A program made the position numbers and the translations under genes. From Mycoavidus cysteinexigens (GTDB lineage: Bacteria; Pseudomonadota; Gammaproteobacteria; Burkholderiales; Burkholderiaceae), in assembly GCA_031963365.1 (NCBI GenBank), contig JASSUF010000001.1, positions 1 to 48,677 of the forward strand: a stretch of DNA of 48,677 bases. Direction: 5' to 3'. The notes under the pieces are model-generated. The model searched no databases, was not told the origin of the DNA, and saw only the letters and a program-made list of their open reading frames with translations. Positions within the stretch are counted from its first letter, which is position 1. Each line of letters begins with the position of its first letter. This document shows positions 2,362-36,338 of the stretch, in pieces.

Positions 2362-3684
2362 ATGGATTATTCCATGCACCTAACTGATATAGCAGCACGC
2401 AATGCTAAGCCCAAAGACAAGCGTTACAAACTCGCTGATAGTGGAGGATTATTTCTAGAAGTGCTCCCCGCTGGCGGGAAATATTGGCGCATGAAATACC
2501 GGAGCGATGGCAAGGAAAATTGCCTAGCGTTAGGCGTCTACCCTAAAGTAACACTTGCTCAGGCTCGCGCAGCACGCGACGCTGCAAAAAAGCAAATAAC
2601 TGATGGCGTAAATCCTGCCCATGAAAGAAAAAAGAAAAAATATCAAGCTTCTGTGAAAAAGGCACATTCTTTTAAAGCCATTGCAGAAGAATGGCTAGAA
2701 AAGCGCGAAGATGACTGGTCTAAAGATTACGCTCAAAAAAAGCGAGACATATTAGAAAAAGATATTTTTCCTTCACTTGGTCCATTCTCTATCGCAGAAA
2801 TTACGGCAGCAGAACTATTACCCGTAATACAAAAAATTGAGAAGCGAGATGCATTAGAAACTTCGCGCAAAGCTTTACAAACTTGCGGACAAATTTTCCG
2901 GTATGCCATAGCAACCGGTCGAGCCAAGCGTAATCCATCGCCAGACTTACGGGGCGCACTTAAAACTCGCTCAGTCAAACATATGGCACGCATTAAAGAA
3001 TCTAACTTTCCAGAGCTTTTGCACAAAATTTCGGAGTACGCAAATAGCCATGAATCAAAAGGAGAGCCATTGACGGAGCTAGCGCTTGATCTAATGACAC
3101 TGACCTTTGTGCGCACTACTGAGTTGCGGTTTGCAGAATGGAGTGAGATTGATTTTAAAAAGCAAGAATGGCGCATCCCTGCTGAAAAAATGAAGAAAGA
3201 CCGCGAGCATGTTGTACCCTTGAGTAAACAAACTCTTACTATTTTGCAAAAATTACGCGCATTAACCGGTAAATATCAATGGCTTTTTCCAGGGGCACGA
3301 TCAACTAAAACGGTAATGAGTGAAAATACCATTCTGTATGCGTTATATCGCATGGGATACCATAGTCGAATGACTGGACATGGTTTTCGTGGGCTAGCGT
3401 CTACGATCCTGAATGAGCATGGTTTTGATAAAGATTGGGTCGAGCGGCAGTTGGCCCATGAGGATGAAGACGAAACACGGGCTGCGTACAATCATGCTGA
3501 ATATTTACCACAGCGCCGCTATATGATGCAGTGGTGGGCCGATTACCTGGATAGAAGAATGGCAGAAAACTATCCAGAGCACGGCAAAGAAAGGTTTATA
3601 GAGTGCGACCCTGATGTGGAAGCAAGGTTCATAGCCCCTCCTCCGCCCGTTGTTCCTCTGTTTGGTAATTGGCCGGGTCTTTAA
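2362..3684 (+). CDS. int: Tyrosine integrase, P4-like (DUF4102-type N-terminal arm-binding domain)
   Basis: N-terminus LTDIAARNAKPKDKRYKLADSGGLFLEVLPAGGKYWRMKY. Catalytic-domain motifs RTTELRFAEW, HGFRGLAST and AAYNHAEY. Adjacent to the tRNA att site. An alternative start at 2374 is possible. Confidence 0.9.
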   Translation: MDYSMHLTDIAARNAKPKDKRYKLADSGGLFLEVLPAGGKYWRMKYRSDGKENCLALGVYPKVTLAQARAARDAAKKQITDGVNPAHERKKKKYQASVKKAHSFKAIAEEWLEKREDDWSKDYAQKKRDILEKDIFPSLGPFSIAEITAAELLPVIQKIEKRDALETSRKALQTCGQIFRYAIATGRAKRNPSPDLRGALKTRSVKHMARIKESNFPELLHKISEYANSHESKGEPLTELALDLMTLTFVRTTELRFAEWSEIDFKKQEWRIPAEKMKKDREHVVPLSKQTLTILQKLRALTGKYQWLFPGARSTKTVMSENTILYALYRMGYHSRMTGHGFRGLASTILNEHGFDKDWVERQLAHEDEDETRAAYNHAEYLPQRRYMMQWWADYLDRRMAENYPEHGKERFIECDPDVEARFIAPPPPVVPLFGNWPGL

Positions 3685-22005: not shown

Positions 22006-23169
22006 TTAGTCCCACAAAAACTCAATGTCTGCGCCATGCTTATTTTTTATACCAGAAAATTTATGGCGTTCATTGTCTAAATGGCAGCCAGATAAACGCA
22101 CTGTCTCTAATGTTAAAAAATTTGATATAGCTCTTAAATCATCAGCTTTATAGCCAGACAAATGATTACCGGTTAAGTCTAGATATTGAACATCTATGTT
22201 CTGCAACTTTTTAAAAATATTTTTTGCGCCATTACGGTCAATATTATTACAGCTTAATGATATGGTTTTTAGCTTTTCTGGCAGATTTTCAATTAGATGT
22301 AATGCCTCTCCATTTGCAAGACCAGCAAAATCTGCTGAGAACTCTTTAATATTGATATTTTTTAAATACTTTGAAAATGCATTTAACGCGGGTCTTTTAT
22401 TTTTATCTAAGCCTAAACTAAAAGAATCAATATTTTTACCTGATAATAATTGCAACAAAGTTGGAATATATTTTATGTCAAACTCATCACTGTCCACACA
22501 GAAGAATGGAATACTGCTCAATTCTGAATTTTTATGTAACACCCATAAAAAGTTGGATGTGAATTTATATTTATCATAATTGCATTCGCTAGACAAAGGC
22601 AAGTCCAATGTTTTTATATTGGTTTTTTTTAGCAAAGCATGAAATACCATATCCATTAGTTTATTACACTGATTCACAGTGGATGAGAAAAAAACAAAAT
22701 CGAAGCAAATATGCTGTACTTTATTAATAATAAAGTCAATGCCAAAATTGGTTTGATTATATGAGAATTCGGTTTTTTGTGTAATTCTAGAAGTCGCTCT
22801 TTCACACCAATCCATTTGATACTCAGGGCTTTGCGAGTCTATATCCGCGCTATCAACCAATAACTTTTCGAATTCAGAAAAAAATATCCTATGCTTAACT
22901 TTTATTGCCTCAAAAAATAATTCTTTATTAACCAACATAAGCACAGATAATTGCTGCATAGACTCTTTTGGTGAATATAATTTTGGAATGACATTTAAAA
23001 TCATGCTTACTAATTCTGTTGGCAAATCAGAAAAGGTAGCAGAAGGAGAAACCCTATTCTGGGAAGCGCTATCGTTTTCCAAGCATAGATCTTTAGAATG
23101 TATTTCATTGCCCTTGGAGTATGTAATATAAGAACGTTCTTGCAATTTATTTACATCTGATACATTCAC
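22006..23169 (-). CDS. F-box + LRR eukaryotic-like protein, moron 2
   Basis: GTG start with SD gaggaaat. F-box FSDLPTELVSMILNVIP...LSVLMLVNKELFFEAIK. C-terminal LRRs LKTISLSCNNIDRNGAKNIFKKL, YLDLTGNHLSG, LETVRLSGCHL. Antisense to the late operon and very AT-rich. Confidence 0.78.
   Translation of the reverse strand: MNVSDVNKLQERSYITYSKGNEIHSKDLCLENDSASQNRVSPSATFSDLPTELVSMILNVIPKLYSPKESMQQLSVLMLVNKELFFEAIKVKHRIFFSEFEKLLVDSADIDSQSPEYQMDWCERATSRITQKTEFSYNQTNFGIDFIINKVQHICFDFVFFSSTVNQCNKLMDMVFHALLKKTNIKTLDLPLSSECNYDKYKFTSNFLWVLHKNSELSSIPFFCVDSDEFDIKYIPTLLQLLSGKNIDSFSLGLDKNKRPALNAFSKYLKNINIKEFSADFAGLANGEALHLIENLPEKLKTISLSCNNIDRNGAKNIFKKLQNIDVQYLDLTGNHLSGYKADDLRAISNFLTLETVRLSGCHLDNERHKFSGIKNKHGADIEFLWD
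22894..23034 (-). other. F-box motif region of moron 2 protein (aa ~46-92)
   Basis: LPtELv.mIL followed by L.vLmLVnKelf..i, matching the F-box consensus. Confidence 0.65.
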
Positions 23170-34074: not shown

Positions 34075-34221
34075 ACGTTCTCCTAATAAAGCACCTCCTC
34101 GGAGATACTATGATTAAGCATATGGAAGATTTTTTTCAGCAGGTATACGGCTAATACCTGGAAGATAAGATTTGGCAAAACGCTGAATACGCTTTAGTTT
34201 GGTAACAAAATACGATGCAAA

Positions 34222-34261
34222 AAGTCCCACATCCTCAAAAAAACTGAAAACATGGGACTTT
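34222..34261 (-). terminator. Possible terminator after the 321-aa cargo gene
   Basis: On the minus strand agtccca pairs with tgggact (long loop), followed by ttttg. Confidence 0.35.
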
Positions 34262-34286
34262 GGCGATCTAAAAAAAGCCATGTTAA

Positions 34287-35252
34287 TTAGGCTAGATCCT
34301 CAATAGATTTAAGCACTATTCGAGCCTGCTCTAAAGGGATGCCTGATTTGGTGAGAGCTTGCTTTAAAATCTCCTTGGAAACGTAATCAGCATGGTTAGC
34401 AGACTGCACTTGTTGGGCTGCCTTGACTTCCGCTAGCTCACGCTGCATGTTTTGCATTATTCGATTCATATTTTCAATTTTGTTATTAACACTCATATTG
34501 TTTCTCAACGATTCTTCTAATTGGGCTACAAATTGATTAAAAAGATTTTTGTGTTTATTAAGGTGAATACGCCGCTCACCTTCTATCTGCGCAATTAAAA
34601 ATCGATAAAACTGCACATATACCGAGATAAACACAAAGCATTTCCCAAACAGAGCCGCCATGCTTGCTGAAATCGCCAATGCGATACACAGTTGCGCGCA
34701 AAGCGGTGCAATAAGGGGCATTAAAATCAAGGTTGCTGTAAACAAAAATACAAAACGACTAGTTTTTTGTTCCTCCGATTCAACCTTAAATTCCTCGTAG
34801 CACTTGGCAAATTTCAGCATGACTTTATGCAAACACGCTAAATTGGCTTCAATTTGGCTGCTTTCTTCAGGTGATAAAGCAATTTCCTCCGTAGTTACTA
34901 ATCCATCAGGCAAGGGAGGCATCTCTGATTGAATGCTGATGCCTTTTTCTACCCACTGCATAAGCGGCTGACAGGCTTTAGCGAAGTTAGAAAGCACGGC
35001 TGCGAACTTGGCCTCCTCCACTTCTGATAAACCTCGGCCGCAATACCAGTTATCTTCCTTCAATACAGTCTTTATGCACGTCCATTGCTCTGAAACTTGT
35101 TCATACAAACTGCACTCTGGTTCGATAATTTCTGGATCGATAAAGCCGCATTCAGATTGGCTTTTACTTTCAGTAACAGCGGGGCTGGGAAAAAAAGGAA
35201 TGTTGAATGTTGAGATGCCTCTTGCCTGCAAAGTGTGCAGGAAGGAAGACAT
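34287..35252 (-). CDS. Cargo protein with central bilobed hydrophobic domain and C-terminal coiled coil
   Basis: SD gggagg. FVFLFTATLILMPLIAPLCAQL-CIALAISASMAALFGKCFVFISVYV, then LEESLRNNMSVNNKIENMNRIMQNMQRELAEVKAAQ. Confidence 0.6.
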   Translation of the reverse strand: MSSFLHTLQARGISTFNIPFFPSPAVTESKSQSECGFIDPEIIEPECSLYEQVSEQWTCIKTVLKEDNWYCGRGLSEVEEAKFAAVLSNFAKACQPLMQWVEKGISIQSEMPPLPDGLVTTEEIALSPEESSQIEANLACLHKVMLKFAKCYEEFKVESEEQKTSRFVFLFTATLILMPLIAPLCAQLCIALAISASMAALFGKCFVFISVYVQFYRFLIAQIEGERRIHLNKHKNLFNQFVAQLEESLRNNMSVNNKIENMNRIMQNMQRELAEVKAAQQVQSANHADYVSKEILKQALTKSGIPLEQARIVLKSIEDLA

Positions 35253-35648
35253 AGCATTTCCTCCCTAGCGCAGTGCAGATAAATAAGGGCTGATATAACA
35301 ACCCCGCCAGAGGGTTATCAAACAGGAAAGCAACGGGTGACTTCGAGAGACAGAAAGCCGGGAAGAAGTTGTTAAACGTCTATAAGCTTTGAGATACGGG
35401 GGATAAATAAAGGAACAGAAACCCATTGGAGGGTCTGGATACGAGCGTAGGTAGTACATTGCAACTCCTAGAGGAGAGTTTCAATTCCCTACCAACCTTC
35501 GCTATCAACCAAAGGGTGGCAGGACCGAGCGAGGTTGATAGACCGGCCTCTAGACCAGTGAGCCGTACGGCTCCCACACTCGGCCCCACCATAAACGGGA
35601 CTGACATAGAGGAACGGAGCTATCAACCTCCGGCTACCTTTTGGTAGC
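35253..35648 (-). ncRNA. Long structured 5' leader (or independent RNA) upstream of the 321-aa cargo gene, class unknown
   Basis: ~396 nt with no convincing ORF between a near-consensus promoter and the gene's SD. Several long-range perfect complementarities (see findings). Confidence 0.4.
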
Positions 35649-35654
35649 GCATTG

Positions 35655-35683
35655 ACTATTACAAATTTATAAGATTTTGTCAA
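35655..35683 (-). promoter_or_regulatory. Sigma70-type promoter (minus strand)
   Basis: On the minus strand: TTGACA (35683-35678), 17-nt spacer, AATAGT (35660-35655). Confidence 0.5.
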
Positions 35684-35991
35684 ACACAATAAAAAAAGGG
35701 GCAATTTCGATGTTTGCACACCATCACACTGCCTAGGAATCGAGGAACATAAGCAGTTTTGAAACGCTGAAAACGGAGGGTACTCCGATAGAAATGCTTA
35801 GCGTAAATTTACCCCGCTTTTTCATGTGGCTAGGCTAACCTTGTTTACTAAAGTAGGTATGAGAAGTAAAAAAACTGCTAGACTAGATGTAACGGCAGCC
35901 TCTACTGCTTTTTATAAGGTCGCCACTGTATATTTGCTGTGAAACAAATTTTAAAAGTAATAATGGCAACATTCTTGTAGCAAATTTTTTT

Positions 35992-36012
35992 GGGGGTATA
36001 TTTGGGGGTATA
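35992..36012. promoter_or_regulatory. Putative integrase arm-type repeats, attR side
   Basis: gggggtata at 35992-36000 and 36004-36012 (12-bp phasing). Same motif as the attL-side cluster. Confidence 0.45.
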
Positions 36013-36074
36013 AATTATACTCACTGAAGAATGAGCCCTTTATTTATATGAATTTCGTCTTTAAATGTGTATCT

Positions 36075-36090
36075 TCTTCCGGGTACCAAA
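36075..36090. repeat. attR core (tRNA-Leu 3' fragment)
   Basis: Exact copy of 2185-2200. Confidence 0.85.
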
Positions 36091-36124
36091 CAAAAATTGC
36101 TTCGAACATGCTTAAAATTCTATG

Positions 36125-36159
36125 AAACCCCGAGGGATTTGATCTATCGGGGTTTTTTA
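36125..36159 (+). terminator. Displaced native tRNA-Leu terminator
   Basis: ccccga (36128-36133) pairs with tcgggg (36147-36152), followed by tttttt, ~35 nt after the attR tRNA fragment. Confidence 0.65.
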
Positions 36160-36198
36160 TTACATGCTCCCACAAAGTGATAGAGCCAATTTCAATAA

Positions 36199-36338
36199 GA
36201 ACCTGTTTAGAGTCTCCCAAAAGGGCCCATCTTCGGGGTCGTGCGGTGCAAGGTATTCACTGTACTTAAAGTACATCCGGATCCTGCGCTCCTGCTCCCC
36301 CAAATATGAACCCTTTTGGAAGACTCTAAACAGGTTCT
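36199..36338. repeat. Family-1 MITE-like repeat, inverted copy with different outer arms
   Basis: The core 36227-36310 is the reverse complement of the 47170-47262 core. Outer 28-bp arms are agaacctgtttagagtctcccaaaaggg / cccttttggaagactctaaacaggttct. Confidence 0.8.

Follow-up and report, generated by a model that had tools for sequence, protein, structure and literature searches.

The systems closest to the locus analyzed here, a region at positions 35253-35683 on the minus strand of a 48,677-nt stretch of DNA from Mycoavidus cysteinexigens (contig JASSUF010000001.1 of assembly GCA_031963365.1; the whole stretch is referred to as the window), are the immI loci of phages P1 and P7, to both of which the antisense RNA family RF01695 is common. 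In the annotated P1 record, immI consists, in this order, of the promoters, the sites a1 and b1 (called “putative” in the annotation), c4, a2, b2 over the Shine-Dalgarno sequence (SD) of icd, icd itself, and ant1. The c4 RNA of P1 is 77 nt long, starts with GGUGGGG and ends with GCCACC; a2 follows 3 nt after C4, and ant1 overlaps icd by 4 nt. Group 1 C4-like small RNAs (sRNAs) of Acinetobacter baumannii are present in many copies per genome, are processed from longer transcripts at GGW, and vary in their loops (Weiss et al. 2016, PMC5320573). C4 RNAs had earlier been predicted in Burkholderiales, at least as cited in PMC5320573 (Weinberg 2010), and were noted on Mycetohabitans chromids (PMC12696581). 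A further system to be compared is IsrK-orf45-anrP of Salmonella Gifsy-1 (Hershko-Shalev et al. 2016); as far as it is treated in the review PMC12197685, it resembles the window locus in that a prophage sRNA is embedded in the mRNA it regulates and acts via a small open reading frame (ORF) coupled to the next gene.

A C4 antisense RNA cassette arranged as in P1 immI

An Rfam 15 scan of the window returned one match in this region, a C4 antisense RNA (RF01695, clan CL00128). A preliminary description of the region, made from the sequence letters, had been unable to connect it with any RNA family, which the full-length match above the gathering score corrects. The window C4 is ~60% identical to P1 C4, has the same three-stem fold and shares with it the U|GG start and the GCCACC end, and the order and spacing of all elements are the same as in P1 immI. 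From the promoter onward, the elements are:

35655-35683, minus strand: sigma-70-type promoter with TTGACA (35683-35678), a 17-nt spacer, TG (35663-35662) and AATAGT (35660-35655)
35633-35648, minus strand: 5'-terminal hairpin GCUACC-AAAA-GGUAGC (−9.4 kcal/mol, z −4.0, more stable than 200/200 shuffles)
35615-35632, minus strand: a1 hairpin, stem CGGAG/CUCCG, with the a1 site in its loop
35620-35630, minus strand: a1 site GAGGUUGAUAG, complementary to a' over 11 nt (duplex −18.2 kcal/mol)
35607-35612, minus strand: b1 site CCUCUA, 6-nt complement of the b' loop (b'-b1 duplex −11.9 kcal/mol)
35512-35596, minus strand: C4 antisense RNA, RF01695, 59.7 bits against a gathering score of 45, E 3.8e-9, model positions 1-87 of 87
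35515-35529 and 35579-35590, minus strand: closing stem (bulged helix) of C4 in the minimum free energy (MFE) fold
35560-35575, minus strand: C4 hairpin 1, formed by the 14-nt palindrome GAGCCGUACGGCUC (35560-35573), with a 5-7 bp stem and a 4-nt loop
35543-35558, minus strand: C4 hairpin 2 with b', from the Rfam match and the fold
35547-35553, minus strand: b' element CUAGAGG, in the loop of hairpin 2
35531-35541, minus strand: a' element CUAUCAACCUC, the single-stranded linker from hairpin 2 to the 3' strand of the closing stem
35502-35510, minus strand: a2 target GGUUGAUAG, 9-nt complement of a' (−13.8 kcal/mol), 4 nt past the predicted 3' end of C4
35465-35474, minus strand: b2 target CCUCUAG(G) (35474-35467; −11.7 kcal/mol), overlapping the leader SD AGGAG (35469-35465)
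35265-35459, minus strand: leader ORF of 64 aa (MYYLRSYPDPPMGF...), starting 5 nt after the AGGAG SD

By analogy with the ends of the P1 RNA, the mature C4 is predicted to comprise 76 nt (35590-35515), from GGUGGGG to GCCACC, and excision-type motifs are present at both predicted ends (U|GGU at the start and GCCACC at the end). This segment folds with −46.1 kcal/mol (z −4.9, more stable than 200/200 shuffles), and the MFE structure accounts for 80% of the ensemble. In it the closing stem encloses a tetraloop hairpin, a second hairpin with the b' loop, and the single-stranded a' linker; the bulged helix and the 14-nt palindrome noticed in the preliminary description are thus the closing stem and hairpin 1 of one fold. 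The 11-mer highlighted there (also written CUAUCAACC) is a', and its two mutually exclusive partners, over 11 nt at 35620-35630 and over 9 nt at 35502-35510, are a1 and a2. The a2 site can also be presented in the loop of an alternative hairpin made of the C4 3' strand and 35485-35499.

The fold is supported by the comparison of homologues that had been proposed as a check. Compensatory changes were detected in 17/20 C4 stem pairs (RNAalifold consensus of 23 Mycoavidus C4 sequences and P1), and three stem pairs of hairpin 1 had both sides changed in 6 to 10 sequences each. A conserved short ORF, which had been named as a possible other cause of the conservation, does exist downstream, but it fails to explain the conservation of the RNA because the C4 stems show these compensatory changes.

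The recognition segments co-vary with their targets. Across 30 cassettes, the mean longest complement was greater for cognate than for non-cognate combinations of b' and b2 (8.4 vs 4.6 nt), a' and a2 (7.5 vs 3.9 nt), b' and b1 (6.6 vs 4.4 nt), and a' and a1 (7.1 vs 4.3 nt), with 0/5000 permutations reaching the cognate value in each case, although the permutation test takes no account of shared descent and some cassettes are near-identical. Variation between copies coincides exactly with the pairing segments; the core is a plain three-stem scaffold. Because the variable loop and linker co-vary with linear sites upstream and downstream, the logic is that of an antisense RNA rather than of a ligand pocket, and the thermosensor or ligand switch considered in the preliminary description found no support. 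A cis-acting sensor leader, in which alternative pairings of the 11-mer would switch the downstream gene with no excised sRNA, could appeal to the fact that these pairings are real and mutually exclusive and that all elements lie on one transcript. Such a leader is nevertheless very improbable in view of the full-length Rfam match, the confinement of variation to the pairing segments of a plain core, the lack of any match of the region to riboswitch families in Rfam at E up to 10, and the same design in P1, which acts via a processed, trans-acting RNA (PMC5320573). Two other proposals of the preliminary description, a riboregulatory leader ahead of a 321-aa gene and a phage noncoding RNA, are both true: the sRNA is embedded in the leader of its target mRNA.

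Among the six intact cassettes in the genome, the codes differ for the most part, a' being common to two cassettes, and the code of the window cassette is also present in two other Mycoavidus genomes, ahead of different genes. Copy-specific a'/b' codes with matching targets parallel the heteroimmunity of P1 and P7. As in A. baumannii Group 1, there are multiple C4-family RNAs per genome whose recognition loops differ between copies. For the A. baumannii RNAs no targets are known, and a location of these elsewhere in the genome has been suggested (PMC5320573), whereas the Mycoavidus copies have matched cis targets, a leader ORF and a downstream cargo gene, and are located on prophages or their remnants. 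No second a2 and b2 pair for the code of the window cassette was found elsewhere in the 2.45-Mb genome, and a search for trans targets of its C4 elsewhere in the genome yielded chance-level 6-7-mers only. An exact 11-mer, GGTTGATAGCG, equal to the a2 site plus flank, is located at ~22848-22858 on the minus strand inside a moron gene encoding an F-box/leucine-rich repeat protein; one such match is expected by chance in the genome, and no b2 partner follows it.

The promoter noted in the preliminary description, with TTGACA, a 17-nt spacer and AATAGT, was found at the same place and is the sole 10/12-match site on the minus strand in a scan of the 2 kb at 34200-36200; it has, in addition, a TG before the −10 box. 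Transcription is predicted to start at ~35648-35650. The motif TTGACA-N17-(TGn)AATAKT recurs in most Mycoavidus cassettes. The 5' hairpin (35633-35648) was likewise borne out by folding; sister cassettes have a hairpin of other sequence in the same place, and a stabilizing role at the 5' end of the primary transcript is probable. Folding of the 211-nt 5' part is more favorable than that of 200/200 shuffles (z −5.2). A further hairpin described at 35287-35320 does exist (−11.2 kcal/mol), but it is not above chance (z −1.2, reached by 27/200 shuffles) and lies beyond the part that is conserved in related cassettes; hence, it was rejected as a functional element. Because this hairpin is no better than chance and a leader ORF is present, the structured RNA spans only ~190 nt (35460-35650), and the remainder of the ~400 nt that had been regarded as structured is, as judged from its sequence, translated leader.

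In P1, the promoter is controlled by the main repressor of the phage through the C1 operator Op51. The window cassette, unlike P1, has a single promoter. The promoter region and the cI-cro intergenic region of the prophage have no common word of ≥9 nt, the operator sequence of the prophage repressor being not known. In most Mycoavidus cassettes (loci L001, L002, L005, L006, L012, L022-L025, L029-L032, and L036) the −35 box is preceded, at a distance of ~20-60 nt, by a conserved element of ~35 nt (...CAGGTA..C...ATTCTTAG...), perhaps an operator or the scar of a recombination event, which is absent from the window cassette. Another difference from P1 is that the window has no terminator-like hairpin between b1 and C4. 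Such a hairpin with a U tract is present in P1 (L035, 3278-3343), in loci L008, L021, L058, L061 and others, and in many non-Mycoavidus cassettes, and is absent from most cassettes of Mycoavidus.

The leader ORF and the proposed regulation of the cargo gene

The preliminary description had seen no credible ORF between the promoter and the 321-aa gene. This was wrong: the RNA is followed by the proline-rich 64-aa leader ORF with a good SD, and homologous ORFs follow the RNA in most related cassettes. In most Mycoavidus cassettes, the small ORF starts 5-12 nt after the SD that b2 overlaps, and its stop is located 9-12 nt before the start of the next gene or overlaps it by 4 or 14 nt; in the window, the leader ORF ends 12 nt ahead of the ATG of the 321-aa gene. 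Unlike in P1, this small ORF is not Icd; position and coupling are kept but homology is not. It has a conserved P-x-P-P at codons 8-11. The features downstream of the leader are:

35260-35265, minus strand: SD GGGAGG of the 321-aa gene, overlapping the leader stop TAG (35267-35265), with the ATG at 35252
34287-35252, minus strand: cargo gene encoding an orphan protein of 321 aa, predicted to consist of helices only; a hydrophobic block (aa 164-223) precedes a long helix
34221-34261, minus strand: terminator-like 18-bp hairpin and U tract after the cargo gene (−26.1 kcal/mol, z −5.9)

The terminator-like hairpin is the probable end of the leader-cargo transcript. A 55-aa ORF (34114-34281, minus strand) between the 321-aa gene and a 480-aa gene overlaps this hairpin and is unlikely to be a real gene.

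Over its first ~140 nt, the leader of the window contains 29-31% C and 12-15% G, a composition resembling that of a Rho-loading (rut) site. Across cassettes, leader ORFs have a mean of 32% C and 14% G; the corresponding values are 23% and 22.5% for the cargo genes, 29% and 18% for P1 icd, and 23% for both bases genome-wide. A C-rich, G-poor stretch of at least ~80 nt, as in rut-type sites, is present in the leader and a rho gene in the genome, and Rho-dependent termination in the leader is thus a prediction from composition.

The motif P-x-P-P is P-D-P-P in the window (codons 8-11, 35438-35427). In 25/33 cassettes it falls within the first 20 codons; counted from the SD-proximal ATG, its first residue is at codon 8 in 22 of the 25. 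Position x is occupied by S, E, D, A or N. The Pro residues are encoded by all four synonymous codons, with CCC-CCA over-represented in the motif compared to the CCT preference of the genome. A role of these codons at the RNA level, through pairing of CCCCC with the cargo SD GGGGG, was rejected, as neither the window nor cassette L001 preserves this pairing; the use of all four Pro codons also speaks against it. After C4, S-[YF]-P-x-P-P was also found in three other genera of the family.

From these features, together with what is established for P1, we consider it highly probable that the region is a self-contained antisense module of the P1 immI type, in which C4 represses the leader ORF and hence the cargo gene. 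At the sequence level, membership in the family, the layout, and a recognition code that co-varies with all four sites and is aimed at the cassette's own leader are established. Processing of the RNA, repression as opposed to activation, and the involvement of Rho are inferred from P1. According to this model, one transcript would start at the near-consensus extended −10 promoter and contain the 5' hairpin, a1/b1, C4, a2/b2, the leader, the cargo gene and the terminator. C4 would be excised from this precursor, with the 5' cut made by RNase P as in P1. Pairing of a' and b' with a2 and b2 on transcripts of the same cassette would block translation of the leader. On the untranslated C-rich, G-poor leader, Rho would then stop transcription ahead of the cargo gene, translational coupling would be lost too, and the output of the cargo gene would stay low while C4 is plentiful. 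The upstream sites a1 and b1 may pair with a' and b' inside the precursor or serve as a decoy. For P1 icd-ant, Rho-dependent polarity via an untranslated leader was reportedly described by Biere, Citron and Schuster in 1992.

Several points weigh against this reading, beside the shared descent of cassettes mentioned above. The sign of regulation is uncertain because the related IsrK of Gifsy-1 activates (PMC12197685). The b' element is short (7-8 nt) and, because it is partly palindromic, partly buried; its stem can extend and leave a loop of only 4 nt. A BLASTP comparison of the leader with P1 Icd gave no alignment even at E 100, and the cargo, unlike that of P1, is an orphan helical protein with a hydrophobic block and not an Ant, Bro-N or KilA-N antirepressor. 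Some of what holds for P1 may therefore not apply to the window cassette.

IsrK and C4 are members of one Rfam clan (CL00128). The window cassette might thus operate with the opposite sign, C4 opening an inhibitory structure at the leader start and activating the leader and the cargo gene, in the way in which IsrK, in the account of PMC12197685, activates its small ORF and, by translational coupling, the next gene. In keeping with this idea, folding predicts that without C4 the SD and start codon of the leader are base-paired within a local hairpin. However, this hairpin seems, from reading by eye, not to be conserved in sister cassettes, and b2 overlaps the SD itself in the window, as in the majority of sister cassettes and in P1, for which experiments have demonstrated repression (PMC12197685). 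With b2 covering the SD as in the repressing P1 system, the window RNA matches the model of C4 and not that of the activating IsrK, and we regard activation as unlikely.

It would also be conceivable that the leader protein is the true regulated product, similar to Icd or to a type I toxin, with C4 as an antitoxin-like, prophage-stabilizing RNA and the 321-aa gene as a passenger. The leader is in the position of icd, which encodes a cell-division inhibitor, and is under some purifying selection (pooled ratio of nonsynonymous to synonymous polymorphism, pN/pS, of 0.36 in the first 24 codons and 0.61 in the remainder). Moreover, another contig encodes a paralogue of the cargo gene that has retained its leader ORF but has no C4. 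Against this stands that conservation across cassette families is limited to the ~25 N-terminal residues, beyond which the ORFs diverge freely in sequence and in length (20 to 245 aa). Nor does the leader protein have a transmembrane segment, similarity to Icd, or a Pfam family, and its sole PHROG match is weak (E 0.005) and to a family of unknown function. There is consequently little probability that the leader protein is the product under control.

Returning to C4 as a repressor of the leader and cargo, the P-x-P-P motif may add to this scheme. In Escherichia coli, expression downstream of a polyproline stretch combined with a rut site depends on EF-P, via termination by Rho (Elgamal et al. 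2016, PMC5021804), and the Salmonella mgtP and mgtL leaders (PMC5299641, PMC3641672) are likewise short ORFs with consecutive Pro codons ahead of genes used inside a host cell. These Pro-codon leaders and their links to EF-P and Rho are a functional analogy only, with no sequence relation to the window leader. A P-x-P-P motif in a rut-like leader fits the conditions under which loss of EF-P causes Rho termination, but any such role here is conjecture. The genome encodes rnpB, rho, efp, and earP. The gene for the EF-P arginine rhamnosyltransferase, earP, is split over two contig ends (contig C17, 3-965, and contig C91, 5320-6394) beside efp, which looks like an assembly break and not a pseudogene.

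As a tentative and rather doubtful extension, in Mycoavidus and a few other Burkholderiaceae genera the C4 switch could have moved from antirepressors to host-interaction or accessory genes and acquired a second input: stalling at the invariantly placed S-[YF]-P-x-P-P (around codons 6-11) within the rut-like stretch would determine the extent to which Rho termination affects the cargo gene, with EF-P/EarP relieving the stall or the supply of proline influencing it. If this were true, each cassette would combine two inputs, a copy-specific antisense signal and the translational state of the endosymbiont within the fungus.

Cargo genes, prophage context and distribution of the cassettes

The 321-aa cargo protein, which seems to be lineage-specific and of a membrane/coiled-coil type, had no Pfam or PHROG match. 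A protein search among 5.8 billion clusters retrieved a single homologue, and no relatives of the protein and its paralogue were found in 185,579 species genomes. The AlphaFold2 model is of low confidence (pLDDT, the predicted local distance difference test, of 44) and contains helices only. The paralogue, 45% identical, is located beside a tRNA 3' end on a contig of the same genome (contig C4, 4100-5800, plus strand); in its leader ORF (MTTFHSYPDSPRD...), which is not accompanied by a C4 RNA, Pro-Pro is changed to Ser-Pro. The cargo genes of other cassettes belong to several unrelated orphan families, and a strongly hydrophobic central block was found in 13/26 cargo proteins.

The cassette is part of a prophage of ~34 kb within the window, which is bounded by a 16-bp direct repeat and has its integrase gene at 2362-3684. 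The repeat copies are:

2185-2200 and 36075-36090, no strand assigned: attL and attR cores TCTTCCGGGTACCAAA, a 16-bp repeat of the 3' end of tRNA-Leu(CAG)

The attR copy (36075-36090) adjoins pcnB, and the cassette lies ~390 bp inside attR at the right end of the prophage, reading inward. No tRNA or tmRNA was detected by a scan of the cassette region, and a BLASTN search of this region against 50,697 phage records gave no match.

The source genome (2.45 Mb, 235 contigs) contains seven copies of RF01695, and 1-8 copies were found in 5/6 congeneric genomes. Nearly all Mycoavidus copies follow one design, consisting of promoter, 5' hairpin, a1 hairpin, b1, C4, a2, b2/SD, small ORF, and a larger gene. 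The window cassette resembles its sisters from the −35 box (35688) to ~35388, a stretch that begins with the promoter and includes the first ~70 nt of the leader ORF, and no further. At the family level, RF01695 matches were obtained in 140/301 genomes and 22/29 genera, the highest number per genome, in one genus, being 14 or more, and in other genera C4 is followed by antirepressor-type proteins with Bro-N or ORF6N domains. This C4-richest genus (g39) has genomes of 4-6.5 Mb; in three near-identical copies sampled from it, a related motif is located at codons 12-17 of the ORF that follows and reads S[YF]PSPP in two and SYRSPP in one.

Some C4 cassettes are arranged in tandem, two copies being separated by 350-450 bp and in most cases having the same code (G006:C1 2326601-2327040, 2483473-2483916 and 978380-978913, and G001:C1 890394-890848; loci L010/L022, L039, L041, and L048). 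The upstream copies L039a and L041a lack a matching a2/b2 and a leader ORF, and upstream copy L022 has kept a2/b2 and a leader of only 20 aa.

Meaning for the family and the host bacterium

The RNA of the window is itself of an ordinary type; what is mildly unusual are the genes under its putative control. Neither the family nor its occurrence in Burkholderiales or in several copies per genome is new. As C4 in Burkholderiales and multi-copy C4-like sRNAs had already been described, the RNA is a new member of a known family only. Cargo genes other than antirepressors, cis-matched targets in every copy, the covariation of a1/b1, and the P-x-P-P leader are modest additions to this picture, whose value lies in annotation and in a hypothesis and not in a new principle. 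The computational comparison of 30 cassettes provides covariation support for the upstream sites a1 and b1, and what had appeared as an unfamiliar structured RNA of 400 nt becomes an annotated, testable switch with named parts and coordinates. For the endosymbiont, the cassettes suggest that the cargo genes of its prophages are not simply constitutive morons but may have a gate of copy-specific antisense RNA ahead of them.

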